A DNA stretch of 64,000 nucleotides from Bythopirellula sp. Lineage in GTDB: Bacteria; Planctomycetota; Planctomycetia; Pirellulales; Lacipirellulaceae. The stretch lies in the NCBI GenBank assembly GCA_041737835.1, contig JBGSQY010000031.1; one strand, written 5' to 3'. Shown one piece after another: positions 1 to 14,425 of the stretch; position 1 is the stretch's first letter, and every line of letters begins with the position of its first letter. Below the pieces are notes generated by a model that was not told where the DNA came from, made no database searches, and saw nothing but the letters and a program-made list of their open reading frames with translations. The translations under genes were made by a program, and so were the position numbers.

Positions 1-1039
1 CGTTCTGAGCGAAGGAAGGGTCGCGCGCTGTCAGCTCAAGAAGATGTTGCTCAGCCGACAAAGTCCGGCGGCGCATGGTCTCCAGCTGATTCGCCAATCC
101 GCCTTTTAGCAGTTTCTTTTCAAATACCGATAATGCACGCGTTGGCGCTTCGGGCAGTAGCCGGTCCATAGGTGCAAACCGAAACGGCACACCACGCCTC
201 TGCTCGATGATCTCTAGAACGACTTCGACGGATATTTCCTTCATCTGTATGAACGGGTTGTCTGCCGGGGCACCGTTAATACAGCACCAATGCTTCGCGG
301 GATCGTCTACAGTACGCGACGACGCGTCATAAACACGCTGAATGATTTCATCGCGAACGGCGTGAAGTGCGGAGTGCGTTAAAGAAGCACAGGATGGATG
401 ATGTGCAACATGGTTGACAGAGACAGCGGCCTCGAAATCATCCAAACTCGGCCCTTTCACATACTCAAATCGCACAAGCACAGCGAACACTTCATCAGGG
501 GCACATTCAAATTCAGTTGCCAGCGCAGTCACGACTCCTAGGAAAGGGTCCCCCAAGTTCGCGATTGAAGTAGCGGCACGGACAGCCTCCTGAAGCCTCA
601 GCGGAGACAAATGAAGTTTGTTAGCGGCACGTGAGTCAAGCGGAGCGTGATTGGAAACAAAATGGAATATGCCGAGGCGCGAAGGAAAACGGGCGTTAAG
701 AGAGACACATTTTTTAATTGCTCCCTTTAAGGCGATGTGTGACAAAGTCCATGTGCCATGTTCCGGCTTTGCAGTCTTAACTTGGAAGCTATCGAACACG
801 CCATTTCGCTTGGCAAGGAAATCATCATGATGTTCGCACCAAATACTTCTATACGGCTGCCTTTGCAATGCTGCTCCGATTAGCAAGATCGCTCCATAAG
901 CATGTTGGTAGCGAAATCGACGTTGAACGTCATCACCTGGATCGTCGTCTTGAACGACATCTGGTGCGGCAGTTACCGGTTGCGGCAGAGAACGCTTATC
1001 CCGAGGCTTCGCACGCGATGTAGGCTTCTTCTTCGCCAT
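1..1039 (-). CDS. Cap4/DUF4297-type dsDNA nuclease with probable ABC-3C C-terminal domain (Lamassu LmuA-like effector); 3'-partial
   Basis: Hand translation from ATG 1039 is open to base 1 (346 codons, no stop): MAKKKPTS...DDPGDDVQRRFRYQHAYG...WCEHHDDF...FQVKT...FVSN...FEKKLLKGGL; PD-(D/E)xK-like E-x-x-DD...QxK motif. Confidence 0.75.
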   Translation of the reverse strand, partial: MAKKKPTSRAKPRDKRSLPQPVTAAPDVVQDDDPGDDVQRRFRYQHAYGAILLIGAALQRQPYRSIWCEHHDDFLAKRNGVFDSFQVKTAKPEHGTWTLSHIALKGAIKKCVSLNARFPSRLGIFHFVSNHAPLDSRAANKLHLSPLRLQEAVRAATSIANLGDPFLGVVTALATEFECAPDEVFAVLVRFEYVKGPSLDDFEAAVSVNHVAHHPSCASLTHSALHAVRDEIIQRVYDASSRTVDDPAKHWCCINGAPADNPFIQMKEISVEVVLEIIEQRRGVPFRFAPMDRLLPEAPTRALSVFEKKLLKGGLANQLETMRRRTLSAEQHLLELTARDPSFAQN

Positions 1040-2260
1040 CTACAGCTCCCCTCGGAAGGCACGGTCCAGGATTGACGGCAAAAGCGCGTTGACACTTAGC
1101 TCAATGGACTTTTGGCGGGTTGAGATCGCGTCAACTTTCTCCATATATGCATTCAACTCCTTAGCAATCGCGATCTGCACACCCATAGGCGCGAGCGGTA
1201 TCGTGAAGTTACGGATCAATCCGAGATTGAGGTTACCCTGAGAATGCCCCCGCCCAAGGGTGTTCATTGTTGCGCTCTTCGCACCGAGCGGTGAATTAAG
1301 CCAATGGACGAGGTATTCAGGATGAATAAGATCCCGATGAGGTTTGATTAGGCAGAGGCTTACGTAGTAGGCAAAATCCAAGGGACGATCAATTAAAGCT
1401 GCTTCGCCAATCATGGCTCCGACGCGTGTCATAAGTACGTCACCAACCTCTGGCTTTCCGCGAGCAATGCATGCCCGATATAGTTCTTCGGAAACGTATT
1501 TGTGCCCTTCCGGGAGGAAGCGATACGGCTTCACGTTTTGCGCAGAAAGGAAAGGAACTCCTACATCCAGGTAATCCGGCGTTTGATGAGTGCCATCGGT
1601 AATTGCAGAAGTTATATCGCTCAATTTGGCGTTCTTCCAACCACGCGGAAGCTCTTCAGAAGCTGATCCAATGAAATGATGCTTTCGTATCGAGTTCCAG
1701 AATGCAAGAAGGTCTCTACTACTAGACTCTACAATTGCTTTAATCTCACCGTCTATTCTTCCCGCTAGGTGTTCAATCTTTGTCACTATACGGCGTTGTT
1801 CCGCTAGCGGAGGCAATGGGATTGTATGCCTCAAGAATACGTCTTCCTTCAGACGGACGCGATTTGTCGTGCCTTCGCTTGCTCGCTTACATGCATCGAT
1901 GAAACTACGCGTCTTCGACAGCCATCCCAAATAATCTGATACGAGTTTCTCCGGCACAGTGTCGAAAGTCGGAAAATCGTTCGAGACAACTGCGCCGTCG
2001 AGATCGTCAGGAACGATTCCAGTGGCACCATTACGAGCGTCGATACGCGAGAGGATGAACTGGCCTGCACGAACTACTGAGCGTCGAGCTGCGGCGATCT
2101 CGCTTCCGAGCGCTATCCTTCGTTCAACAACGCCACGGCCCCACAACTTTACAGTCACCTCGCGATATTGTGTGTCTGCGGCAAGGTCCGTCGTAACATT
2201 ATTTTTGCTGAGCAGCTCCCAAAGTGGCACTTCTGGAGCCCAGCCTTTGCTTGTGTTCAT
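1040..2260 (-). CDS. hsdS: Type I restriction-modification specificity subunit
   Basis: Two TRDs separated by conserved IPLPPLAEQRRIV and IPLAPMGVQIAI segments; ends ILDRAFRGEL; follows hsdM. Confidence 0.95.
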   Translation of the reverse strand: MNTSKGWAPEVPLWELLSKNNVTTDLAADTQYREVTVKLWGRGVVERRIALGSEIAAARRSVVRAGQFILSRIDARNGATGIVPDDLDGAVVSNDFPTFDTVPEKLVSDYLGWLSKTRSFIDACKRASEGTTNRVRLKEDVFLRHTIPLPPLAEQRRIVTKIEHLAGRIDGEIKAIVESSSRDLLAFWNSIRKHHFIGSASEELPRGWKNAKLSDITSAITDGTHQTPDYLDVGVPFLSAQNVKPYRFLPEGHKYVSEELYRACIARGKPEVGDVLMTRVGAMIGEAALIDRPLDFAYYVSLCLIKPHRDLIHPEYLVHWLNSPLGAKSATMNTLGRGHSQGNLNLGLIRNFTIPLAPMGVQIAIAKELNAYMEKVDAISTRQKSIELSVNALLPSILDRAFRGEL

Positions 2261-3837
2261 CCTGGTTCTCCTGCGAGTACCGCCTCGATCTCTTCTAGGA
2301 TCTGGATTATCTGACGCTCCTTCTTAAGAATGTCGGCTAGGAGTTGTGCGGGAGGCAGGTGCTCCAGGGCCTCCGCGCTATTAGGGTTCTTGATGTCAAG
2401 ATTACAACTGATGAGTGCTCCCTCATCGTCGTATTGCATCACATCGCTCGCCGGAATCCTCCAGGCCTGATCATTCTCTTTGCGTCTCTTCTGGGCGAAC
2501 CATTTCAGGCAATCCGAAAACTCCTCAAATTGCATCGGTTTTGTTTTGGAATAATTCTTCCGACCTTCTGGAAGAGGCATTTCATAGAACCAGATGTCCT
2601 TCGTTGGCCCGCTGCGGTCGAAGAAGAGCAAATTGGTGGGGATAGCGGTATATGGCTGAAAGACACCGTTCTGCAGCCGAACAATCGTATGTAGGTTGAA
2701 GTCCTTTAGGAGAGCTTCCTTGACCCTGGCACAAACACTATCACCGAAAAGCGTGCCATTGGGTACGACGACCGCTGCACGGCCAGGCTCTTTGCCACCA
2801 ACAGGACGGCGGAGTCTGCGCATGATGAGTTGCAGGAACAAGAGTGCCGTCTCGGCGGTCTGCATGTCCTGAGGGAAGCCACTCTTGATGCTCGCCTCTT
2901 CTTCACCACCAAACGGCGGATTGGTGAGTATTACGTCGACACGATCACGATCACCGATCTCGGTCACCTTCAAAGCGAGCGAGTTACCGTAGTCAATCTG
3001 CGGCGAATCCAAGCCGTGAAGCAGTAAGTTCATCTGACAAAGCAAGTAAGGGAGAGGCTTTGCCTCCTGTCCAAAAAGAGTTTTGGTTTGTAATGCTTTG
3101 CGATCTTTCGCTGTCTGCACTTGCTGCGACAAGTGGTCAAACGCTTCCACTAAAAAGCCACCCGTACCGCAAGCAGGGTCGAGAACGGTCTCACCAAGCT
3201 GAGGATCAAGAGCAGCCACCATGAACTGCACAACAGCCCTCGGGGTGTAGAACTCGCCTGAATCTCCTGCTGCGTCTCGCATCTCTCGAAGCATTGACTC
3301 GTAGAGGCGACTTAGAGTGTGGATTTCCTCACTTGAGTTGAAGTGAATGTCATCGATCTTGTTCAAAACATCTCTCAGTAGGTATCCAGACTCCATCCGA
3401 TTGGTGACACCACGAAAAACGTTTGCAACGACTTCTTCTCTCCCTCGGCCGTCGGCTGATTGCAAACCGCGAAGATAAGCAAATAACCCTGGCCCTTGCT
3501 TGCCGTCAGGTCTCGTCGCTTTCTCTTGGCCAATAAATGCAAGCAATTCAGGTCCGGTCATGCCGTCATCGTTCGTAGCCCAATCCCGCCAGCGATAGGG
3601 TTTGGCAACAAGCGGGCGAAACTTCTCACCGCCCAATTGGGCTTCTTCTTCCTTAAGCTTCTCCAAGTCATCAAGAAACTTGAGGAACATGATCCACGTG
3701 AGCATCGGCAAGCGATCTAGGTCGCCATTGAGCCCTTTATCTTTGCGCATGATGTCGCGGCAAGACTTAATCAGGCTGCCAAGGGCCTGAGCGGTGGTTT
3801 GCGTCGGTGCGGCCTTCTTGGCCATTTTCTTCGCCAT
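2257..3837 (-). CDS. hsdM: Type I RM N6-adenine methyltransferase
   Basis: GEFYTPR, DPACGTGGFL (motif I), NPPF (motif IV). Confidence 0.97.
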   Translation of the reverse strand: MAKKMAKKAAPTQTTAQALGSLIKSCRDIMRKDKGLNGDLDRLPMLTWIMFLKFLDDLEKLKEEEAQLGGEKFRPLVAKPYRWRDWATNDDGMTGPELLAFIGQEKATRPDGKQGPGLFAYLRGLQSADGRGREEVVANVFRGVTNRMESGYLLRDVLNKIDDIHFNSSEEIHTLSRLYESMLREMRDAAGDSGEFYTPRAVVQFMVAALDPQLGETVLDPACGTGGFLVEAFDHLSQQVQTAKDRKALQTKTLFGQEAKPLPYLLCQMNLLLHGLDSPQIDYGNSLALKVTEIGDRDRVDVILTNPPFGGEEEASIKSGFPQDMQTAETALLFLQLIMRRLRRPVGGKEPGRAAVVVPNGTLFGDSVCARVKEALLKDFNLHTIVRLQNGVFQPYTAIPTNLLFFDRSGPTKDIWFYEMPLPEGRKNYSKTKPMQFEEFSDCLKWFAQKRRKENDQAWRIPASDVMQYDDEGALISCNLDIKNPNSAEALEHLPPAQLLADILKKERQIIQILEEIEAVLAGEPG

Positions 3838-3847
3838 CTGCTATTTC

Positions 3848-6241
3848 CTAAGCGACATAAAGTTCGGTTTGGAGTTGTGTCACGGCGGATCGAAGTTGCT
3901 CGGCCCCTCCGAAGAACTGAATTATTTCACTAACATTCCCTCGATTTGAAATGGGAGGCACTTTCAAAACATCTGGGATTTCAAACTGCCCTGCTCCATG
4001 GTCTTCATACTTCATCAAGATATCTAATAGCACGGCCTTGGCTTCTGCACCGTATTGGTCGAAGAAATCTTGCTTATCTTTGCGAAGCCGGTCAGCCCGT
4101 TCGCGGCGCGTGCGGAGCGGTGCATTAAATGCTAAATGACAGAGTAAATCGAATGGGTCTGCGTCGGGATTGCCTGCCGCCTCGGTCAGCCCATCAAAAT
4201 CAATGCCTCGTTTGGCCAACTCGGCAACAATTTCATTGCGGCGTTCATTATCAAGCCAACGATCTAGCAGGTCTTCAGGATCGCGGCAGAGTGAACGGAC
4301 GCGGCCAGCCGTATAGTCCACAAACTCAGTGACTGTGAGCAATCGCCCTTCAGCATCCAGGTCTTGAATGACTTCGTGGGCAATACCGACACCGGCATCA
4401 CGGTCGACATAGAGCTTGCGAGGTTCTTCGGGTCCAGGGGGTTCATCAATTGGCGGCGGTCCGTCAACGGGTCCATCGCCTTCTTCGGGCGTTGGTTCGT
4501 CGTCACCTTCAGGCAAGACATCGACTATCACGTCGCCTTCGTCGTCAATTGTGATTTCTTCGATCAGTTCTGGCTCGCCATCAAATTCAGGATCGGCGAA
4601 GTGGCTCGTGGCGGTGCCTGTGTAATCCAAAATCGAAAACCAAAGTTTACCGTAATCTTCATCAATTCGTGTGCCGCGTCCGATGATTTGCTTGAATTCA
4701 CTCATGCTGCCTACGACTCGGGCCAACGCAACGTTTTTGACCATCTTGGCATCGACGCCTGTCGTCAAAAGTTGCGATGAAGTGAGGATTACTGGCTCTT
4801 CGGTTTCGAGTTCTTGAAAGCGGCTGAGGTGACCACGTCCAATCATTCCTTCATCTGCTGTAACGCGAACGACATAGTTGGGATATTTCTTGGCACGCTC
4901 CGGATCGTGTTTGACGAGAAGGTGTTGCAATTCAGCCCGCATTTCCTGGGCGTGTTCTTGATCGACGCAGAACACGAGAGTTTTGGCCATCGGGTCGTTG
5001 CGTTGCAAGAAATCAAACAGATGCTTAGCGATTGCCTTAGTTCGCGAACGTAAGGCAACGACCCGCTCAAAATCTTTCGTCTCGTATTCATCATCGGGAA
5101 TTTCGCGGCCATAGCGATCAAGTTCGCCGCGAGTCGGACGCCAACCGGCAGCATCGGCTGTGGTGATGATGCGATGCACCCGGTAGGGTGCCAAAAATCC
5201 ATCCTCAATTCCTTGTCGCAAGCTATAGGTATAGATGGGATTTCCAAAGTAACGATACGTATCGCGGCTATCCTCGCGGAGCGGCGTCGCCGTCATTCCA
5301 AACTGGGCGGCGGGACGAAAGTATTCTAAGATTTCCCGCCAACTGCTCTCAGTGCGGGCACTGCCCCGATGACATTCATCAATGATGATGAGATCAAAAT
5401 AGTCGGGCGCGTATTCCTTATAAAGACCTGGGCGCCGTTCATCCTGAGCAATGGCTTGATAGATCGCGAAGTACATTTCCCGGCTCTTGATAACTTCGCC
5501 ATTCTCGATCTTGTGCCGTGCATCTCCAAACGGTGTAAAGGTCTTGTCCTTAGGGTCGTCGATCAAAATGCTTCTGTCCGCAAGATACAATATCCGAGGA
5601 CGACGATTAGGATCGCCTTTGCGATTCCACTTGGCATTCCAAAGTTTCCAGCAGATTTGAAAAGCGACAACCGTTTTGCCTGTGCCGGTTGCCATCGTTA
5701 CTAAGATGCGGTCTTGCCCCTGCACGATGGCTTGGACAACTCGGTTGATGGCAATCTCTTGGTAGTAACGGGGAATTTTTCCCGGCTGAATATAACTGCC
5801 TTCTAACAATTGCTCGGCAGCTTCATCATTGAGTTTGTCTTTTTGTTTGATGCGAGCGAACAACTCGCCAGGGCTTGGGAAATCCGTAAGGGTTGTTTCG
5901 GCTCCGGTGCCAAAATCAAATTCCACAATGCCGGTGCCGTTAGTCGAATAGGCGAAGCGTATTCCTAGAGCCTCGGCATAGCTTTTGGCCTGAGCAAGTC
6001 CATCGCCCGGTTTCTTGTAATCGGGCTTGGCTTCGACGACGGCCAGGGAATAGTCGCGAGAATATCGCAGTAAATAATCAACTCGCTTCTTTTCGCCACG
6101 GCGTGTTTGGGCATCGGGTCTTACAAAGACACGGCCATCAGTAAAGGATCGTTGCTCCGTGAATGAATGTGGAATTTGATCCCAACCCGCCGCGATAAGC
6201 TTAGGCACAACATATTTGGTGCAAGTATCAGCTTCATTCAT
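3848..6241 (-). CDS. hsdR: Type I restriction endonuclease subunit R (EcoAI/EcoEI type IB-like)
   Basis: Likely start MNEADTC at 6241; VDYLL...EAK nuclease motif, ATGTGKT, DECHRG, EcoEI-like C-terminal region; R-M-S order. Confidence 0.95.
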   Translation of the reverse strand: MNEADTCTKYVVPKLIAAGWDQIPHSFTEQRSFTDGRVFVRPDAQTRRGEKKRVDYLLRYSRDYSLAVVEAKPDYKKPGDGLAQAKSYAEALGIRFAYSTNGTGIVEFDFGTGAETTLTDFPSPGELFARIKQKDKLNDEAAEQLLEGSYIQPGKIPRYYQEIAINRVVQAIVQGQDRILVTMATGTGKTVVAFQICWKLWNAKWNRKGDPNRRPRILYLADRSILIDDPKDKTFTPFGDARHKIENGEVIKSREMYFAIYQAIAQDERRPGLYKEYAPDYFDLIIIDECHRGSARTESSWREILEYFRPAAQFGMTATPLREDSRDTYRYFGNPIYTYSLRQGIEDGFLAPYRVHRIITTADAAGWRPTRGELDRYGREIPDDEYETKDFERVVALRSRTKAIAKHLFDFLQRNDPMAKTLVFCVDQEHAQEMRAELQHLLVKHDPERAKKYPNYVVRVTADEGMIGRGHLSRFQELETEEPVILTSSQLLTTGVDAKMVKNVALARVVGSMSEFKQIIGRGTRIDEDYGKLWFSILDYTGTATSHFADPEFDGEPELIEEITIDDEGDVIVDVLPEGDDEPTPEEGDGPVDGPPPIDEPPGPEEPRKLYVDRDAGVGIAHEVIQDLDAEGRLLTVTEFVDYTAGRVRSLCRDPEDLLDRWLDNERRNEIVAELAKRGIDFDGLTEAAGNPDADPFDLLCHLAFNAPLRTRRERADRLRKDKQDFFDQYGAEAKAVLLDILMKYEDHGAGQFEIPDVLKVPPISNRGNVSEIIQFFGGAEQLRSAVTQLQTELYVA

Positions 6242-6507
6242 CGTGGCTTCCTCTGAATCTGCTGGAGGGACTTGCCCCGTCGATGGTTGGAATTGGCTGC
6301 GGCCAGAATGTAATGCCATTCAGTCCCTGCTCGCTCGGCCCGGATATCATAGCCTCGCTGCCGCAGAGCCATCACGTCGCGGGAAATCGTGGGAATGGAC
6401 ACGCCGATTTCGGCGGCTAGCTCCGGGGTGGAATACTGACCAGTTTGAATAAGCTGCAAAACCGTCTGCAAACGGTGCTCGATGTCGAGCGAGCGTTGAT
6501 AAAGCAT
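6238..6507 (-). CDS. Small winged-HTH (HTH_11-like) regulator
   Basis: STPELAAEIGVSIPTISRDVMALRQRGY; strong RBS GGAGG; ATGA overlap with hsdR. Confidence 0.8.
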   Translation of the reverse strand: MLYQRSLDIEHRLQTVLQLIQTGQYSTPELAAEIGVSIPTISRDVMALRQRGYDIRAERAGTEWHYILAAANSNHRRGKSLQQIQRKPR

Positions 6508-6531
6508 GGAAACTCCTCCGTAAGTTCCTCA

Positions 6532-6560
6532 TGTCTATCACGGGGCGATAGGAGCGTCAA
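6532..6560 (-). promoter_or_regulatory. Putative sigma70 promoter with palindromic operator for the HTH-hsdRMS-nuclease operon
   Basis: TTGACG (6560-6555), 17 nt, TAGACA (6537-6532) preceded by TG; inverted repeat CTATC-N7-GATAG at 6535-6551. Confidence 0.55.
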
Positions 6561-6598
6561 TTCGCGGGCCAGAAAAAGTGCCAATAAGGCATTTACCC

Positions 6599-6814
6599 TC
6601 AGTCAACCTCAAGGCTTGGCCAGTTTCCGTATTTCTCCTGGCAGGCAGGACAAAGCCCTGTATAGTTCGCCATCGGCAGGTCCGGTGCATAGTCCATGCA
6701 GGTCCACCCTTCGCGGATGGCTTGTTCATAGCTGTGGATGTCCATCCCTGCATCGCATTCCTGGCAAACGAGAGTAAAGGGCACGTCTATCGTGATTTTC
6801 TTGGGAGTATTCAT
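6599..6814 (-). CDS. Small hypothetical protein with two CxxC motifs (zinc-ribbon-like)
   Basis: MNTPKKITIDVPFTLVCQEC...GLCPAC; 71 aa from ATG 6814. Confidence 0.55.
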   Translation of the reverse strand: MNTPKKITIDVPFTLVCQECDAGMDIHSYEQAIREGWTCMDYAPDLPMANYTGLCPACQEKYGNWPSLEVD

Positions 6815-6878: not shown

Positions 6879-7109
6879 TCAAACGCATTCCGGCTGAAGG
6901 CCATGCAGATATTCCGTGGCACGGCTGGCATGAGAAGCGGCGGTAAAAATCGCTCGCTTATCGTCTTTCAAGACTTTGAGCCAAGTCTCGATATAGCTGG
7001 CATGGTCTTCACGGATTTCGGGTGTCAGACTCAAGTCAGCACAAAGAAACGCGGAGCCCAGTTCTGCGACCAATTCCTCCATCGCATAACCGGCGTCGCC
7101 CCATCGTTG
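6879..7109 (-). pseudogene. ardC: C-terminal remnant of ArdC-family antirestriction/ssDNA-binding protein
   Basis: RWGDAGYAMEELVAELGSAFLCADL...EDHASYIETWLKVLKDDKRAIFTAASHASRA; in-frame TGA at 7122-7124, N-terminal part absent. Confidence 0.85.
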
Positions 7110-7220
7110 AGCCCCCTCTTCTCAAAAAAAAGAACGTCAATCGGCGTCAGCCCATGACAGTCGCCGACAGGCCCTAGAAAAACTCTTGCTGAATTGGAAA
7201 GGAATGTTAGGTTCGCGGTT

Positions 7221-7823
7221 ATGACCGCTCTCCTCAAACACTCTTGCCATGACTTATGCTGCTCTGATTGCAAAGAGCCGATTGCGGCGAACGCCGGTCA
7301 CTACGCGATTGAATTTCACGATTGCCGTATCCACGGCGATAAGAGACAAGTCGAACAGACCGAGAGCATCGCGACCGTCTGTGCCAAGTGCTCTCTCGGC
7401 TACGATCTGACGCGCTTGAACCCTCCCAACAAAGAAGGCTATTTTGCTCACGAGCCTTTGGGACTGGCTCTTATCGATGAGCGTCAATGTTCCCTTTGCC
7501 AGAATGAATTGTCCCATGGTGACAAGTTCCAAGCGGCAAGCATCCGTCCTGTGGGCATTTCAAAGAGTGATGAAGCAACGATCACGATTTCGCTCTGTTT
7601 GGTATGTTCCGAGAAACGGCTCTTGCGATACGCAGAACCGCCCAGCAACGCTTGCCCTCCTTATTGCTACCAATGCGGTGCGTACACCGGCTACACCGGC
7701 GGCTATAGCGATCAGCGAAAACTCTATGTGAGGCACCCAAGCGTTCCCGCCTATTCGCTGCCGAAGGACAAAATACGCGTGTGCGAACACTGCTTTTTCG
7801 AGGAGCTAGACGACGAGTCATGA
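7221..7823 (+). CDS. Hypothetical protein with six CxxC motifs
   Basis: CSDC, CAKC, CSLC, CLVC, CYQC, CEHC in about 200 aa. Confidence 0.55.
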   Translation: MTALLKHSCHDLCCSDCKEPIAANAGHYAIEFHDCRIHGDKRQVEQTESIATVCAKCSLGYDLTRLNPPNKEGYFAHEPLGLALIDERQCSLCQNELSHGDKFQAASIRPVGISKSDEATITISLCLVCSEKRLLRYAEPPSNACPPYCYQCGAYTGYTGGYSDQRKLYVRHPSVPAYSLPKDKIRVCEHCFFEELDDES

Positions 7824-7877: not shown

Positions 7878-8198
7878 ATGAATGAACTGATTGAATACGT
7901 CAGGGACAACGGACGTTGTCCGTTCGCAGAATGGTTTAAAAGCCTGGACGATCAGTCCGCTGCGAAAGTCACGACGGCCCTTGATCGGATGAAGGCCGGT
8001 AACTTCGGTGATTATAAGTCCGTTGGGAGCGGCGTGATCGAGCGACGTATCCACCACGGTCCTGGCTACCGTATCTACTTTGGCCGCGATGGCGACAAGT
8101 TGGTTGTCTTGGTCGGAGGGGGTACAAAGTCGCGGCAGAGTTCAGACATTAAAACCGCTCAGGAAACGTGGGCCGAATACAAAGCAACGAAAAGGTAA
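7878..8198 (+). CDS. Type II TA RelE/ParE-superfamily toxin (addiction module killer)
   Basis: GRCPFAEWFKSL...GNFGDYKSVGSGVIERRIHHGPGYRIYF...LVGGGTKSRQSSDI. Confidence 0.9.
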   Translation: MNELIEYVRDNGRCPFAEWFKSLDDQSAAKVTTALDRMKAGNFGDYKSVGSGVIERRIHHGPGYRIYFGRDGDKLVVLVGGGTKSRQSSDIKTAQETWAEYKATKR

Positions 8199-8209
8199 GG
8201 AAACGAGAG

Positions 8210-8527
8210 ATGGGATACACGAGACCAGTTAAAGAAACGATTCTTGAGCGGGCCAAATCGAGCCCGAAGTTCCGGGCTGCCCTGATCGGCGAAGCTCTAG
8301 AACTGATCGCTGAGAATGACGTGCAAACTGCCAAGTCGCTCATTCGCGACTATGTTCTGGCTTCGATTGGGTTTGAGGCCCTGGCGAAAGAAGTTGGCAA
8401 GAAACCCGAGAGCATTAAACGGATGCTGAGCGTCAAGGGTAATCCGACGATCAACAACATGGCTGCCCTTATTTCTTCGCTCAGTCAGCATGAGGGTATT
8501 ACGCTGCATGTGGAGGCGACACGCTAA
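8210..8527 (+). CDS. HTH antitoxin (addiction module antidote)
   Basis: Follows toxin; GFEALAKEVGKKPESIKRMLSVKGNPT HTH. Confidence 0.85.
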   Translation: MGYTRPVKETILERAKSSPKFRAALIGEALELIAENDVQTAKSLIRDYVLASIGFEALAKEVGKKPESIKRMLSVKGNPTINNMAALISSLSQHEGITLHVEATR

Positions 8528-8529
8528 CA

Positions 8530-8715
8530 ATGGCTCACCCACCTAGCATTTCTCATGACGAAGCCCTCGTGCAACAATTGCGGGCTGATCCAAAATTTGC
8601 AGAAGCCTACCGAGAGGAAGCTGCGGAAGAAGCCATGGGTGTCCGTGAGATTGCCCAAGGGCACTTGGCTGACGCTGCAAACGGTTCCACGGGCCCCACT
8701 GCATCATCATCCTAA
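8530..8715 (+). pseudogene. Truncated second antidote-like protein
   Basis: SHDEALVQQLRADPKFAEAY resembles antidote N-termini; HTH part is cut short where repC ends. Confidence 0.5.
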
Positions 8716-9992
8716 GCCGCCGCACGGCTCTCTTGCTGAGCCAGTATTCCAAACACCGAATTGTGCAGCCGCAATTCCGCAGTCCTTGCCCTGTTGATCA
8801 TCCCGCGAAAGTAAGCGGCGGGCTTCTCGACCACGTTTTCCGTCCGTTCGGTGGCCCTGTCGGTCACGAGCAAACACAACGCGGCTCCGGTGCGACCCAG
8901 AATTTCGCACGCTTCTCCCCAACTCGCTTGCGAAATCCCAAGCGGCGTTCGCAAACGGTAGGCTGCTTCAATCAAATCGGACCAAGTGGGTTCTGGCGGT
9001 AAGAGTTCTTGAAGCCGTTCACTGGCTGCCGCAATCGCCATCGCTAGTGAAATATGAGCTATCCCCGAGCTTGTGACGGGGTCAGTGGCCTCAGGACGAG
9101 CCGCTACGCTTCCCTGCAAGCCCTCGTCGGCCCGACTACTATCCTTATTTATTTTTAGAGTTGTGTATTTGTAGTGGGCGAACGGAGGTTCGCTTGTGCA
9201 TGTACCTTTATTGGTTTTTTCTGGAATAGAACGCGGTGGAGGGGCTTCAAGAGTTTCGACCTTCCCTACTCCCATTCCTTCCAATATCGCGTTATGGAGC
9301 GATTGATGACGGGCTAACAGCGTCCGCATGGTTTCAAGATCCAAATGCGTGCGAAGCTGAATAGCGATTTGATCGTATCGTTTTTCATATTCGTTTAACA
9401 AAACAAAAGCCCCCTCCTCCTGCTGCCATTCGAGCAGGAGCGAGCGAATTTGGCGGCGGTAGAACGATATCTCACGCTTGCATGCCAGCCACGCCTGATC
9501 GTGGAGTTGTTTTTCGTGCAGCATGTCCTGCAATTGCTCGCGGAGATACGCGAGCGGCGTCAGGTCGACGCCATAGGCGTAGAGAATTTTTCCCGATTGG
9601 GAATCACGCTGTCCGTAGCGTTTGTGATTTCCAGAATCGCTCCATGTGATGGCTCCCAATTCAAACAAAGCCTTCTCAAGCTTTTGAACTTGCCGTTCGC
9701 AAACGCCTAAATCGAGTGCCGTGCGAGATAACGACTGGTAAACAATCGGTCGTGACCCCCGCTCCCAATCGATTTCTCTCGTAAACGCAAAATAATAATC
9801 CAAGAGTTGCATCATGCGGGGCGTAAAACCTGCCGCCTTCCCTACCCGTTTGACCAGCAATAGTAACTCGTAGCGGTCGATCCCCTCCTCCAGTCCGGTA
9901 AAATCTTCGCTGCGAATAAGCGATTGCCGGTAAGCGGGCGAGCTCACGCGGCCCCCTCCTCGCTGATCATGATTGGTATAGGTCTCTAGCAT
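8712..9992 (-). CDS. repC: Plasmid replication initiator, RepC family
   Basis: PIVYQS...LEKALFELGAITWSDSGNHKRYGQRD...YAYGVDLTPL and C-terminal VEKPAAYFRGMINRARTAELRL; likely start ATG 9992 (426 aa). Confidence 0.85.
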   Translation of the reverse strand: MLETYTNHDQRGGGRVSSPAYRQSLIRSEDFTGLEEGIDRYELLLLVKRVGKAAGFTPRMMQLLDYYFAFTREIDWERGSRPIVYQSLSRTALDLGVCERQVQKLEKALFELGAITWSDSGNHKRYGQRDSQSGKILYAYGVDLTPLAYLREQLQDMLHEKQLHDQAWLACKREISFYRRQIRSLLLEWQQEEGAFVLLNEYEKRYDQIAIQLRTHLDLETMRTLLARHQSLHNAILEGMGVGKVETLEAPPPRSIPEKTNKGTCTSEPPFAHYKYTTLKINKDSSRADEGLQGSVAARPEATDPVTSSGIAHISLAMAIAAASERLQELLPPEPTWSDLIEAAYRLRTPLGISQASWGEACEILGRTGAALCLLVTDRATERTENVVEKPAAYFRGMINRARTAELRLHNSVFGILAQQESRAAA

Positions 9993-10104
9993 GGTTTCTC
10001 TAGCGTTACCGCGAGCTAACAAGCAGCATTCAAGGGTGTGCAAAAACTCCTTGCCGAACCAGAATTTGGTTTGCAACATGAGAATACTTGCGCTAGAGTG
10101 AGAG

Positions 10105-10620: not shown

Positions 10621-11802
10621 GTTATCCACTGCGGCTGTGACCCGCGAGGAATCACGACCACAAAATACCATCTGCGGAACGGTACTTGTTTCAATTTTGA
10701 TCCTGGTGGTCAAAGTGCTTACGAAACTGATGGCTATAACCTGCTCAAGGATGTCCATGTGGAAAAGCCTGGTGCCATAGGCCGTTTAATGGCGCTCGCT
10801 GCGGGCTCTTTCCCGGACAATCACAACGTTAAGGACCAATGGTACATAAAAGGGCCAAAGACCGGGCTCGCCTCGACCTGGGGGCATTTTCTCTCAGCTA
10901 GCGACGATCCCAGCAAACATAACGTGGTTTATGGTCTGCAACGGCTTTTGGGAATTGATCCCCTGACAGGGATTGCCGAACCGCGTAATCAGGAAAAGTT
11001 GTTTCAAGAAATGATGCGAAATCCGTCCCTCAACGGCTGGATTCAAACCGTCGCATGTTCCTTGTACCAGCTAGGAGAAAAGAACTTCGGTGCCCTCAAT
11101 TCTGAATTGCAAACGAATGCTGGGTGGATGCTAGATCCCACAATGACAGAGGTGTTGACCAAACCATCCAGCTTCAGTCTTGACTGTCTCGGCCATGATG
11201 ATTGGCCAGTAACGGCGTTTTTTACACCTCCTCGGGGAGAGAAGGTGGCCAATGCTTGGCTGCGTTCAATTTTCGAGTTGATGCAAGTTGTGTTTCAACA
11301 GCAGGAGCATGTCCCAAAGTATTCAACCGGTATAATTTGCGACGAATTTAAATTTTGGGGAAGCGACGTAACATCGGCAAGAGACTCACTGAACGTCATG
11401 AGGGACAAAAATGTAGCCCTCCATATTTATACCCAGAGCTATGCCCAATTACTCGAAATGGCCGGCGAGCAGGGGGCAGCAGAAATGCTGTCAGCATGCT
11501 GTCTCCAAGTGTTTGGCTGTAACGATCTGATCACACGGAAGATGATTCGAGAAAAACTTGGTCGCACTCAGTACCGGAAATGGGGTCGTGCCTCAGACTG
11601 CCCCACGGCAGTCGATGTGCTGTCTGATGACTCTATCGACCGTTATTTGAGCCGTAGCTCACCACTGCAAATAGTTATGCCTCCCGATACTCCCGCCATG
11701 ATGTTGGGTCGGCTCGCATACAAAACGCTGCGAACGAAGGAGGGGACGTATTACGAAGGGCTCCCTCTCAAAGGGCATTACGACGATCACTTGGGCCATT
11801 AA
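10621..11802 (+). pseudogene. 5'-truncated VirD4/TraG-like type IV coupling protein
   Basis: Frame open from 10621 (CDPRG...FNFDPGG...YNLL), Walker B-like IICDEF, HIYTQSYAQL; no Walker A, TAG at 10618. Confidence 0.65.
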
Positions 11803-12942: not shown

Positions 12943-13214
12943 TGCGCTTATTGACTGTCAATGATGCGAGCGAGCAGCTGACGTTGAGCCGTTCGACAAT
13001 CTACAGTGAGGTCAATAAAGGCCGCATGAGCCATATTCGACTCGCTGATGGCAGCATTCGCTTTCAACAAGCCCACCTCGACGCTTACGTCGCTGCTCGC
13101 GAAGTCCTGGCCTGCTCGCCGACAAAAAGCCAGCGAACCGCGAAAAGGGCCCCAAGAGCCCCATCGCGGTTCCGCCATATCGATGTCAGCCGACAGCTTG
13201 GCAAGCGAAAGTAA
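12939..13214 (+). CDS. Excisionase-like HTH_17 protein
   Basis: LLTVNDASEQLTLSRSTIYSEV...IRF; ATGA overlap with previous gene. Confidence 0.8.
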   Translation: MMRLLTVNDASEQLTLSRSTIYSEVNKGRMSHIRLADGSIRFQQAHLDAYVAAREVLACSPTKSQRTAKRAPRAPSRFRHIDVSRQLGKRK

Positions 13215-14220
13215 CCAAATGCTCCTGAGCGACGTGGGTGTATCGCTCCGTCGTTTGGGTCGATGTGTGGCCAAGTAGCTGGCTTGTCATCTTGAGATTG
13301 CCAGTCTTGAGAATGGCGTTGGTCGCCGCCCTATGCCGCAAAGTGTAGGGAATAACTTTGGAATCAAATCCGGCACGCTTCCGAATATTCTGGACACGTT
13401 GGTCAATGGCATTGACGGTCCACGGTTCACCCCGCGAATTGATGAAGCAGTGAGTACTTGTGGAATGTTTTTTCAGCCACTTCAACAACCGCATCATCTT
13501 CGGAACCAAAGGTATGACTTTGGGTCGACCCGTCGAGCGGCGGGTTTTGTGTTGAGCGAGCAGGGCAATGTTTTGCTCCCAATGAATGTCACTCCACTGC
13601 AAGCGGATCAACTCGCCAGGTCTGCAAAACGTCCAGTCCATGGCGAGCAACACGCGGCGAAACTCCGCTCCGCGACGGTGGTTGTTCTTGGGATTGGTGG
13701 CCCGCAGCATGGCTTGAAATTCTTTGTCCGTGAGATACCGATCACGGCGGACACTCGTGGGTTTACGAATTCGGCCAAGCGAGTGGGGCGGAATGATTTG
13801 CTCTTCAACGCCCCAATTGAAGCAGCGTTGTACAGAACGCAAAACAATCCCCTGCGTCGTGGAATTGAGCCGTTTTTCCAGGGCAATTGTGAAGTGCCGA
13901 ACATGGAGCGGCTTGATGGTATGAGCGGGCAAAGCCCCATACTCATCAACAAACATTTGGCAGCCGTAACGATACGAGTCGTACGTTTTGGGAGCCAAGT
14001 TCCGCTGCACGTCCTCCAAGAATTCTTCGCAGAGTGCGGCGACGGTCAGCGGACCATCGACCGTCCCCAAGAGCTTTCGCTCGGCGAGAAGGGCGTCCAA
14101 TTTCTCTTGGGCAAGCTGCTTGTTCTTACGTCCCTTGGCGAGACAGAGACGTTTGCCGTCGATCTGCGTGGCCCAATACTTTTTGGCGGACCACCACCAC
14201 AAACTCGGTTGCGTAGCCAT
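13186..14220 (-). CDS. Tyrosine recombinase/integrase
   Basis: RPGELIRL, HKT, YTLRH, LLGH, TTERY catalytic set; RBS GAGG before ATG 14220. Confidence 0.95.
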   Translation of the reverse strand: MATQPSLWWWSAKKYWATQIDGKRLCLAKGRKNKQLAQEKLDALLAERKLLGTVDGPLTVAALCEEFLEDVQRNLAPKTYDSYRYGCQMFVDEYGALPAHTIKPLHVRHFTIALEKRLNSTTQGIVLRSVQRCFNWGVEEQIIPPHSLGRIRKPTSVRRDRYLTDKEFQAMLRATNPKNNHRRGAEFRRVLLAMDWTFCRPGELIRLQWSDIHWEQNIALLAQHKTRRSTGRPKVIPLVPKMMRLLKWLKKHSTSTHCFINSRGEPWTVNAIDQRVQNIRKRAGFDSKVIPYTLRHRAATNAILKTGNLKMTSQLLGHTSTQTTERYTHVAQEHLVTFACQAVG

Positions 14221-14254
14221 CGAAATCCTCACGAAAAAAGCTGGTCTCAGTCAC

Positions 14255-14341: not shown

Positions 14342-14352
14342 TATTATATCAG

Positions 14353-14425
<73 letters not shown>

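Follow-up and report, generated by a model that had tools for sequence, protein, structure and literature searches.

A predicted two-layer defence operon joining type I restriction–modification to a Cap4-type Lamassu system

Introduction

Short type II Lamassu systems have been described in Vibrio cholerae (DdmABC/LmuACB) and Salmonella enterica (LmuACB), with structures available in the Protein Data Bank (PDB) as entries 9hr5, 9hqx, 9nxx and 9ny5. Their effector LmuA combines a Cap4 nuclease of the PD-(D/E)xK type at the N-terminus with a helical domain at the C-terminus; it is held by an LmuB2-LmuC complex and released to form an active tetrameric DNase, which brings about abortive infection (bioRxiv 10.1101/2025.04.02.646746; bioRxiv 10.1101/2025.03.14.643221). 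The same two structural studies showed independently that Lamassu binds the ends of double-stranded DNA (10.1101/2025.04.02.646746; 10.1101/2025.03.14.643221), and in vivo the V. cholerae system is enriched at the replication origin of lambda, not at random breaks (10.1101/2025.04.02.646746). Here we analyse the first 6560 nucleotides (nt) of a 64,000-nucleotide stretch of contig JBGSQY010000031.1 (assembly GCA_041737835.1; the whole stretch is called the window below), in which a helix-turn-helix (HTH) gene, the three genes of a type I restriction–modification (RM) system and a gene for a Cap4-type LmuA follow one another on the minus strand with almost no gaps. We propose that they probably belong to a composite, co-transcribed defence operon of two layers, carried by a decayed conjugative or integrative element at a tRNA-Lys gene.

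The LmuA encoded here is predicted to have the same two-domain build as the solved proteins, and among its relatives the resemblance extends to the order lmuA-lmuC-lmuB, to the 4-nt overlaps between these genes and to an LmuB of ~645 amino acids (aa) with a Walker A motif, a Walker B motif of the form hhhhD-S and CxxC motifs. It differs from the solved Lamassu systems in its very diverged sequence and in lacking an upstream intergenic region of its own, being joined instead to a type I RM operon at the 3′ end of the latter. Payne et al. 2024 (bioRxiv 10.1101/2024.01.29.577857) reported that operons for type I RM, bacteriophage exclusion (BREX), DISARM and Hma can have other defence systems embedded in them; they proposed co-regulation and co-transfer as the rationale for embedding, and PrrC is the classic case. 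The present locus resembles theirs in that a complete second defence system would be co-oriented with, and inside or attached to, an hsd operon. However, Lamassu is named in that work just in a list of ABC (ATP-binding cassette) ATPases and not as an embedded system, and the Lamassu of the window is appended after hsdS, true embedding being seen in three of its relatives (L023, L024 and L049). PrrC, in the hsd operon of EcoprrI, is likewise a latent suicidal nuclease linked genetically to type I RM, but it is an RNase guarded by the RM complex, whereas Lamassu combines its own SMC-like sensor with a DNase; the two share no homology, and the RM partner of Lamassu varies between clades.

The leader gene invites comparison with the controller (C) proteins of RM systems. 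Classical C proteins are Xre-type (HTH_3) regulators. Like theirs, the leader is a small HTH gene that comes first, overlaps the restriction gene and has a putative palindromic operator in its promoter, from which a similar mode of regulation is predicted. Its product differs in fold family, having the HTH_11 winged helix that is also seen N-terminally in WYL/YafY regulators; HTH_3 is absent among the 15 Pfam families reported at E ≤ 0.1, which places the leader protein outside the classical C proteins, and members of its family stand at the head of type I, MmeI-type and SNF2/N6_N4-methylase systems and not of type II RM.

Type II Cap4 Lamassu, type I RM and the general nesting of defence systems in type I RM operons are already known. 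In the literature searched, coverage of which is incomplete, no paper was found that explicitly describes a Lamassu embedded in an hsd operon or fused to one, although large censuses may hold such cases implicitly; nor, within the same incomplete coverage, did we find a description of this HTH_11 leader cassette. What the analysis adds is a recurrent, polar and apparently translationally coupled wiring of Cap4 Lamassu to hsd genes, which is spread over at least five clades and involves three RM families and three gene orders. This raises the question of whether an abortive system that senses DNA ends uses, complements or merely rides with a first line that cuts DNA. In addition, the promoter, operator and HTH gene form a candidate non-Xre controller cassette for establishing restriction after transfer in elements of Planctomycetota.

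Results and discussion

A type I RM system abutting lmuA

The predicted operon consists of five genes on the minus strand. The leader gene (6507-6238; 89 aa), whose product matches Pfam HTH_11 (4e-08), is followed by hsdR for the restriction subunit (6241-3848; 797 aa), hsdM for the N6-adenine methyltransferase (3837-2257; 526 aa), hsdS for a specificity subunit with two target-recognition domains (2260-1040; 406 aa) and finally lmuA (1039-1), which contributes the first 346 of its 429 codons before it exits at the left edge. Read from the sequence, the four junctions measure -4, +10, -4 and 0 nt in this order. The stop codon of the HTH gene and the start of hsdR share ATGA in a 4-nt overlap, the TAG of hsdR is separated by 10 nt from the ATG of hsdM, hsdM and hsdS share a second ATGA overlap, and the TAG of hsdS (1042-1040) directly abuts the ATG of lmuA (1039-1037), with a Shine-Dalgarno-like GAGGGGAG positioned 6 nt 5′ of this ATG. 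The same five genes and near-gapless junctions had been described in the original prediction, and all of its coordinates and overlaps proved correct when re-read.

Open reading frames (ORFs) on the plus strand within 1-6560 are short and nested inside the minus-strand genes. The junctions are too tight to accommodate terminators, and a terminator scan of the operon found no terminator-like sites at the five-gene junctions, but the numbers of both sigma-70 promoter and terminator consensus matches in the operon region were no higher than in shuffled sequence, so that these scans are uninformative. A weak sigma-70-like match (TTCAAA-18-AATAAT, with TG) lies at 3950-3921 on the minus strand, inside the 3′ end of hsdR and before hsdM.

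On the evidence of their profile matches, the three hsd genes form a complete type I RM system. HsdR matches the Pfam families ResIII (2e-36), EcoEI_R_C (1.2e-26), SWI2_SNF2, Helicase_C and, weakly, HSDR_N_2, as well as the PADLOC model REase_I (PDLC03049; 1e-211) over residues 1-795, that is, over its full length; it thus has the nuclease region at the N-terminus, the SF2 helicase motor and the C-terminal domain of a type I restriction subunit. The ORF listing also contains a longer version of hsdR beginning at 6319; position 6241 is the likely start because the REase_I alignment already begins with the first residue of the 797-aa protein. HsdM is recognised by N6_Mtase (7.3e-62) and HsdM_N in Pfam and by MTase_I (8.7e-198) in PADLOC, and its NPPF motif is present in the translation as LTNPPFGG. 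HsdS matches Methylase_S (4.6e-14) in two stretches and the PADLOC model Specificity_I (4.7e-58).

A Cap4-type LmuA by sequence and predicted fold

The part of the last ORF that lies in the window is 100% identical to residues 1-346 of a 429-aa database protein (P0001), through which residues 347-429 of the lmuA product, beyond the window, are known. The ORF matches Pfam Cap4_nuclease (PF14130) at 1.2e-16 and the PADLOC model for LmuA (PDLC03848) at 5.5e-14, the latter value improving to 4.9e-15 for full-length P0001. There are 123 database relatives of this protein, and PF14130 is found in all of those with a recorded domain. An alignment of 29 homologues shows ten residues without variation (D33, G35, D36, Q39, Y44, Q45, E69, D73, Q86 and K88); residues in the C-terminal part of P0001 are invariant among homologues as well, and the protein is full length. 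An AlphaFold (AF2) model of the 429-aa LmuA (predicted local distance difference test score 85.8) contains an alpha-beta-beta-beta core at residues 34-88, onto which the ten invariant residues map. Their arrangement in the model fits a PD-(D/E)xK site in its Q-x-K variant.

No PDB entry was matched by the LmuA sequence, either by phmmer with P0001 or by a profile search from the homologue alignment, and a fold search was therefore needed. The best Foldseek match was LmuA of Salmonella (9hr5; E 2.7e-08), and the leading matches also included that of V. cholerae (9nxx), entries 9hqx and 9uxl, and LmuACB complexes. Hachiman HamA and Cap4 of the cyclic oligonucleotide-based antiphage signalling system CBASS ranked below the solved LmuA proteins. 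Alignments to the latter span ~400-420 columns of the 429-aa model and so include both domains. Template modelling (TM) scores are 0.35-0.43, with 10-14% identity in the structural alignments, and low TM values such as these could reflect a different orientation of the two domains in the model. Taking sequence and predicted fold together, we identify the last ORF as a Cap4-type LmuA that has both the nuclease domain and the C-terminal helical domain. It had originally been predicted to encode a nuclease with Cap4/DUF4297 motifs, and the hidden Markov model of PF14130, PADLOC and the fold search now agree with a Cap4-type LmuA.

Nine plasmid-borne relatives of LmuA, identified by tblastn, are annotated merely as 'dsDNA nuclease domain-containing protein'. 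The Cap4 domain also occurs in fusions to NACHT NTPases (L165:9944-12520, 858 aa; L160:3529-8142, 1537 aa; also L154-L164). These fusion proteins are ~37-42% identical to LmuA residues 1-282 and have no lmuC or lmuB nearby, which suggests that Lamassu and NACHT/Avs-like systems exchange the Cap4 nuclease module with each other.

lmuC and lmuB in relatives of the locus

The relatives surveyed comprised two individual loci, 80 genome loci and 80 metagenome loci. Non-redundant loci were considered if LmuA was matched over its full length and at least 2.6 kilobases (kb) of sequence followed it; lmuC and a short lmuB were found directly downstream of lmuA in 106 of 106. In L001 and L003 the Cap4 gene is followed by a gene for a 187-aa protein and then by one for an AAA_23 protein (556 or 645 aa), each with a 4-nt overlap, and PADLOC assigns these products to LmuC (8e-12 and 1e-13), the middle component, and to LmuB (5e-58 and 2e-71), the SMC/Rad50-like ABC ATPase; the original prediction had named a small middle component and an SMC/ABC ATPase as the genes to look for. 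The LmuB of L003 has a Walker A motif GEMGAGKST, two CxxC motifs and a Walker B motif LLIIDS, features of the 'short' Lamassu LmuB as described by Haudiquet et al. (bioRxiv 10.1101/2025.04.02.646746). Because both genes are present in every one of the 106 relatives, we strongly infer that lmuC and lmuB follow just to the left of the window.

L001 (11868-15059), from a metagenome-assembled genome of Planctomycetia, is the closest genome relative. Its lmuB encodes just 556 aa and has DDE transposase genes behind it, and a transposase also stands before hsdR; this copy of LmuB may have been truncated by insertion sequence activity.

Recurrent and polar association of Lamassu with type I RM

Upstream sequence of at least 1.3 kb was available for 114 non-redundant loci. 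In 13 of these, hsdS, hsdM or hsdR was located directly upstream of lmuA on the same strand, and two more had one intervening gene. Iterative searches assigned the adjacent gene as hsdS (L001, L003, L022, L023, L024, L049, L088, L108 and L131), hsdM (L018) or hsdR (L052, L054 and L061); the intervening genes are AbiJ-like in L093 and of the RhuM type in L142, while L106 and L137 have hsdS fragments at contig ends. Immediate upstream ORFs were called in 66 of the 114 loci, and the commonest Pfam family among them was Methylase_S (9), with HsdR-type domains next (3). RM and lmuA overlap by ATGA (-4 nt) in L003, L088, L049 and L131; the gap is +1 nt in L001, ~+4 nt in L023, +14 nt in L108 and ~+50 nt in the loci in which hsdR is adjacent. 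Recurrence of the adjacency of hsdS and lmuA among homologues had been proposed as a check, and the survey finds it in several lineages with overlapping or abutting codons.

The association is also polar. Of the HsdM matches in the 66 loci that extend at least 8 kb in each direction, 12 lay upstream of lmuA and co-oriented with it, 1 downstream and 0 antisense. On the LmuA neighbour-joining tree, loci linked to RM are distributed over at least five distinct clades and are interleaved with unlinked loci.

Three gene orders can be distinguished. The first, hsdR-hsdM-hsdS-lmuACB, is that of the window's clade, in which the same RM family is common to L001, L003, L088 and L093; the window is 58-76% identical to its clade in HsdR, 66-78% in HsdM and 46-52% in LmuA, and just 24-33% in HsdS. 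The second, hsdM-...-hsdS-lmuACB-hsdR, is a true embedding found in loci from Chlorobium, Cyanobium and Chlorobiaceae, with lmuACB located between hsdS and hsdR at L023:12942-16826, L024:13773-16736 and L049:15838-18759; in L023 and L024, hsdR begins 4 nt after lmuB. The third, hsdM-hsdS-x-hsdR-lmuACB, occurs in betaproteobacterial loci. HsdM proteins of the three RM groups are just 25-31% identical to one another, implying that Lamassu became linked with unrelated type I families on more than one occasion, or was kept across exchanges. One association with an MmeI-type RM system was found (L012), and many relatives have other defence genes upstream, among them MmeI, HEPN-DUF499, UvrD and AAA_15.

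Several of these loci contain further insertions. A gene for an Mrr_cat nuclease and two unknown ORFs lie between hsdR and hsdM in L003 (3197-5441). In L093 a 328-aa ORF follows hsdR and a gene for an AbiJ_NTD4 protein precedes lmuA (5415-6401 and 9132-9932, respectively), and in L142 the RhuM-family gene before lmuA is at 8747-9763. The HsdR of L023 (1294 aa) contains an IS200-like Y1_Tnp domain at residues 396-471, and in L049 a deaminase/HATPase_c_4 gene separates lmuB from hsdR.

The HTH leader and its putative promoter–operator

Beyond its HTH_11 match, the leader protein is recognised by a WYL-regulator model of PADLOC (6.6e-07) that covers its N-terminal HTH part alone, and GGAGG is present 7 nt before its ATG. 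Upstream of this, at 6560-6532 on the minus strand, is a compact element made up of TTGAC (6560-6556), the palindrome CTATC-N7-GATAG (6551-6535) and then ACA. When the window was aligned with six loci carrying homologues of the HTH gene, the pattern TTGAC-N4-CTATC-N7-GATAGACA was invariant, ~25-55 nt before the HTH ATG, and the flanks around it were otherwise unalignable. It occurs once each in 12 of 12 HTH loci (L166-L177) and in 0 of 165 Lamassu loci, and the exact palindrome at 6535-6551 is perfect and unique in the window. We interpret the pattern as a putative promoter overlapped by the operator of an autoregulating HTH controller, binding and regulation being predicted from its conservation and position.

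The family to which the leader belongs is large and consists of ~88-aa HTH_11 proteins in records from Planctomycetota, Pirellula and Gemmataceae. In five look-ups, homologues with 60-85% identity were always encoded by the first gene of a restriction-type operon, often with a 4-nt overlap, as in L172, L173 and L176. The operons headed in this way include an MmeI-type RM system (L166), an Mrr-type nuclease (L171) and pairs of an SNF2 helicase and an N6_N4 methylase (L169, L172, L173 and L176). Their mobile backbone comprises ArdC, a TrwC relaxase, a Gp49-type toxin-antitoxin pair and DUF1580. As judged from these neighbourhoods, the HTH gene is a generic Planctomycetota leader that belongs to the cargo slot of the element and to the restriction genes, not to Lamassu. 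The proposal that a single HTH regulator heads the operon is thereby strengthened in one respect, by the 4-nt overlap with hsdR and the conserved promoter–operator, and narrowed in another, in that this regulator is not specific to Lamassu and has no homologue in the other RM-Lamassu loci examined. Small ORFs before hsdR in L003 and L093 were considered as counterparts of the HTH gene and rejected as unrelated.

A probable two-layer defence in one predicted transcript

In the reading we favour, transcription would start at the promoter overlapped by the palindromic operator (6560-6532), and the HTH_11 protein would bind the operator and regulate its own synthesis, in the manner of a C protein setting the timing of restriction once the element has reached a new host. 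A single transcript from the HTH promoter would bring first-line restriction and second-line Lamassu together, in a translationally coupled order that runs from the HTH gene through hsdR-hsdM-hsdS to the short type II Lamassu, with lmuA right after the hsdS stop, then lmuC and lmuB. The RM system would cut unmodified incoming DNA. By analogy with the solved systems, LmuB2-LmuC would hold monomeric LmuA, bind DNA ends or replication intermediates and then release LmuA, which would tetramerise to become an active DNase and cause abortive infection.

That RM and Lamassu share expression and inheritance is implied by the order and common orientation of their genes and by the overlapping codons; biochemical cross-talk between the two is something we only infer. 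With RM partners drawn from different families, what connects the two systems is most likely some general feature of restriction, not contact between particular proteins. Low, controlled and co-mobilised expression is one candidate, and the DNA ends that restriction makes are possibly another. We rank plain two-layer co-expression first; both co-regulation with co-transfer and a feeding of DNA ends to Lamassu fit the present evidence. If the two layers are merely additive, the locus is an ordinary composite module of a defence island.

Several points weigh against a coupled two-layer operon. Adjacent type I RM is present just upstream in ~13% of LmuA relatives, a figure that is a lower bound under the first rule applied (an ORF covering -450 to -200), which left 48 of the 114 loci without a called neighbour; the remaining ~87% are without it, so the pairing is optional. 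No homologue of the HTH protein was found by tblastn in any of the 165 Lamassu loci. The lmuC and lmuB genes of this locus would fall outside the window and are expected from relatives rather than observed. Exact look-ups of HsdS and of P0001 brought up no record, and a search with the LmuB of L003 returned no protein from this contig among the 120 matches listed, which extend to 48% identity, the contig possibly being absent from the database, and the two genes could have been lost here. Transcription as one unit is predicted from gene arrangement, and a promoter internal to hsdR or hsdS may exist: the match at 3950-3921 could be such a promoter, serving hsdM-hsdS and perhaps lmuA. Finally, all functions discussed here are read from homology.

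The generic link could be more direct than co-expression. Ends made by the type I enzyme on unmodified DNA might themselves be the ligand of the LmuB-LmuC sensor, in which case RM would sense non-self and Lamassu would be the effector that amplifies the response or aborts the infection, for instance when RecBCD is blocked or restriction is saturated. If true, this would explain the repeated directional wiring of lmuACB into unrelated hsd operons. It is in keeping with the binding of double-stranded DNA ends in two structural studies, and the polarity of the association and its independence of RM family (three type I families and the MmeI-type system of L012) are what a generic restriction product would lead one to expect. 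We nevertheless consider such a relay rather unlikely. Each successful restriction would risk suicide unless a threshold for tetramerisation prevented it, most members of the Lamassu family work without adjacent RM, and the enrichment of V. cholerae Lamassu at the lambda origin, not at random breaks, also argues against it.

It is less probable still that Lamassu merely landed next to RM in a sink for defence genes and is transcribed alone, or that lmuA is an orphan remnant. In favour of this, clustering is a general habit of defence genes, lmuA is preceded by other defence genes in many relatives, the LmuB of this contig is not among the matches listed (with the contig possibly absent from the database), and the island is decayed, as seen in its ArdC remnant and TraG fragment. 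Yet with the zero gap found here and the -4 nt of L003, L088, L049 and L131, an independent promoter could only lie within hsdS, and a 12:1:0 polarity of HsdM is unexpected from random clustering. An orphan lmuA is at odds with a full-length P0001 whose catalytic and C-terminal residues are invariant, and with the presence of LmuC and LmuB in 106 of 106 relatives.

We find no support for the abortive fail-safe released on inhibition of RM that the original prediction envisaged, and regard as the least credible explanation a PrrC-like guard in which the Lamassu nuclease would lie latent on the RM complex until Ocr/Ard/Stp-like proteins inactivated it: PrrC inside EcoprrI offers a precedent, Payne et al. 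discuss the embedding of ABC-ATPase defences in type I RM, and lmuACB lies between hsdS and hsdR in L023, L024 and L049 as PrrC lies within its hsd operon, but a protein guard is made unlikely by an RM partner that is not conserved (its families are unrelated, with HsdM 25-31% identical between clades, and three gene orders occur, all of which speaks against a co-evolved interface), ~87% of the Lamassu family are without adjacent RM, the latency of LmuA is already accounted for by LmuB2C sequestration, and models for PrrC and RloC are absent from the PADLOC matches of the lmuA ORF, the effector being a Cap4 DNase.

The operon as cargo of a decayed element

The two-layer operon appears to be mobile cargo. 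A tyrosine integrase gene (13186-14232, minus strand; Phage_integrase 4.3e-25) adjoins a tRNA-Lys(ctt) gene identified by ARAGORN (14352-14425, minus strand), and from their arrangement we take the pair to be the right border of an integrated element that carries the operon. The GC content is 51-52% in the first 14 kb of the window versus ~55% beyond. A search of the window for a second att copy with the 3′ end of tRNA-Lys found the tRNA alone, which puts the far (left) border of the element outside the window. No plasmid relatives of 1-6600 were found by megablast against plasmids. A DUF1570 gene, of a family that we take to be typical of Planctomycetes, lies beyond tRNA-Lys, and the host is probably a Planctomycetota genome.

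Just upstream of the RM operon is a C-terminal remnant (6879-7082, minus strand; 67 aa) of an ArdC-type zincin metallopeptidase anti-restriction protein. An intact ArdC gene occupies the same position relative to the HTH cassette in L169, as does a gene for the ArdC N-domain in L172; this placement by HTH cassettes points to a shared element backbone. Further along are a Gp49/HigB-like toxin gene with an overlapping partner ORF, which has no family match and is a presumed antitoxin (7878-8527, plus strand), a gene for a RepC-type replication protein (8712-10079, minus strand) and a truncated gene for a TraG/VirD4 coupling protein (10759-11802, plus strand). Together with the integrase, the tRNA-Lys gene and the shift in GC content, these context genes indicate that the operon is cargo of a decayed integrative or conjugative element.

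Two cysteine-rich ORFs with several CxxC pairs and no Pfam family complete this region. One of ~72 aa (6599-6814, minus strand) separates the HTH promoter from the ArdC remnant, and one of ~209 aa is at 7194-7823 on the plus strand. A terminator-like hairpin is located at 6864-6845 on the minus strand.

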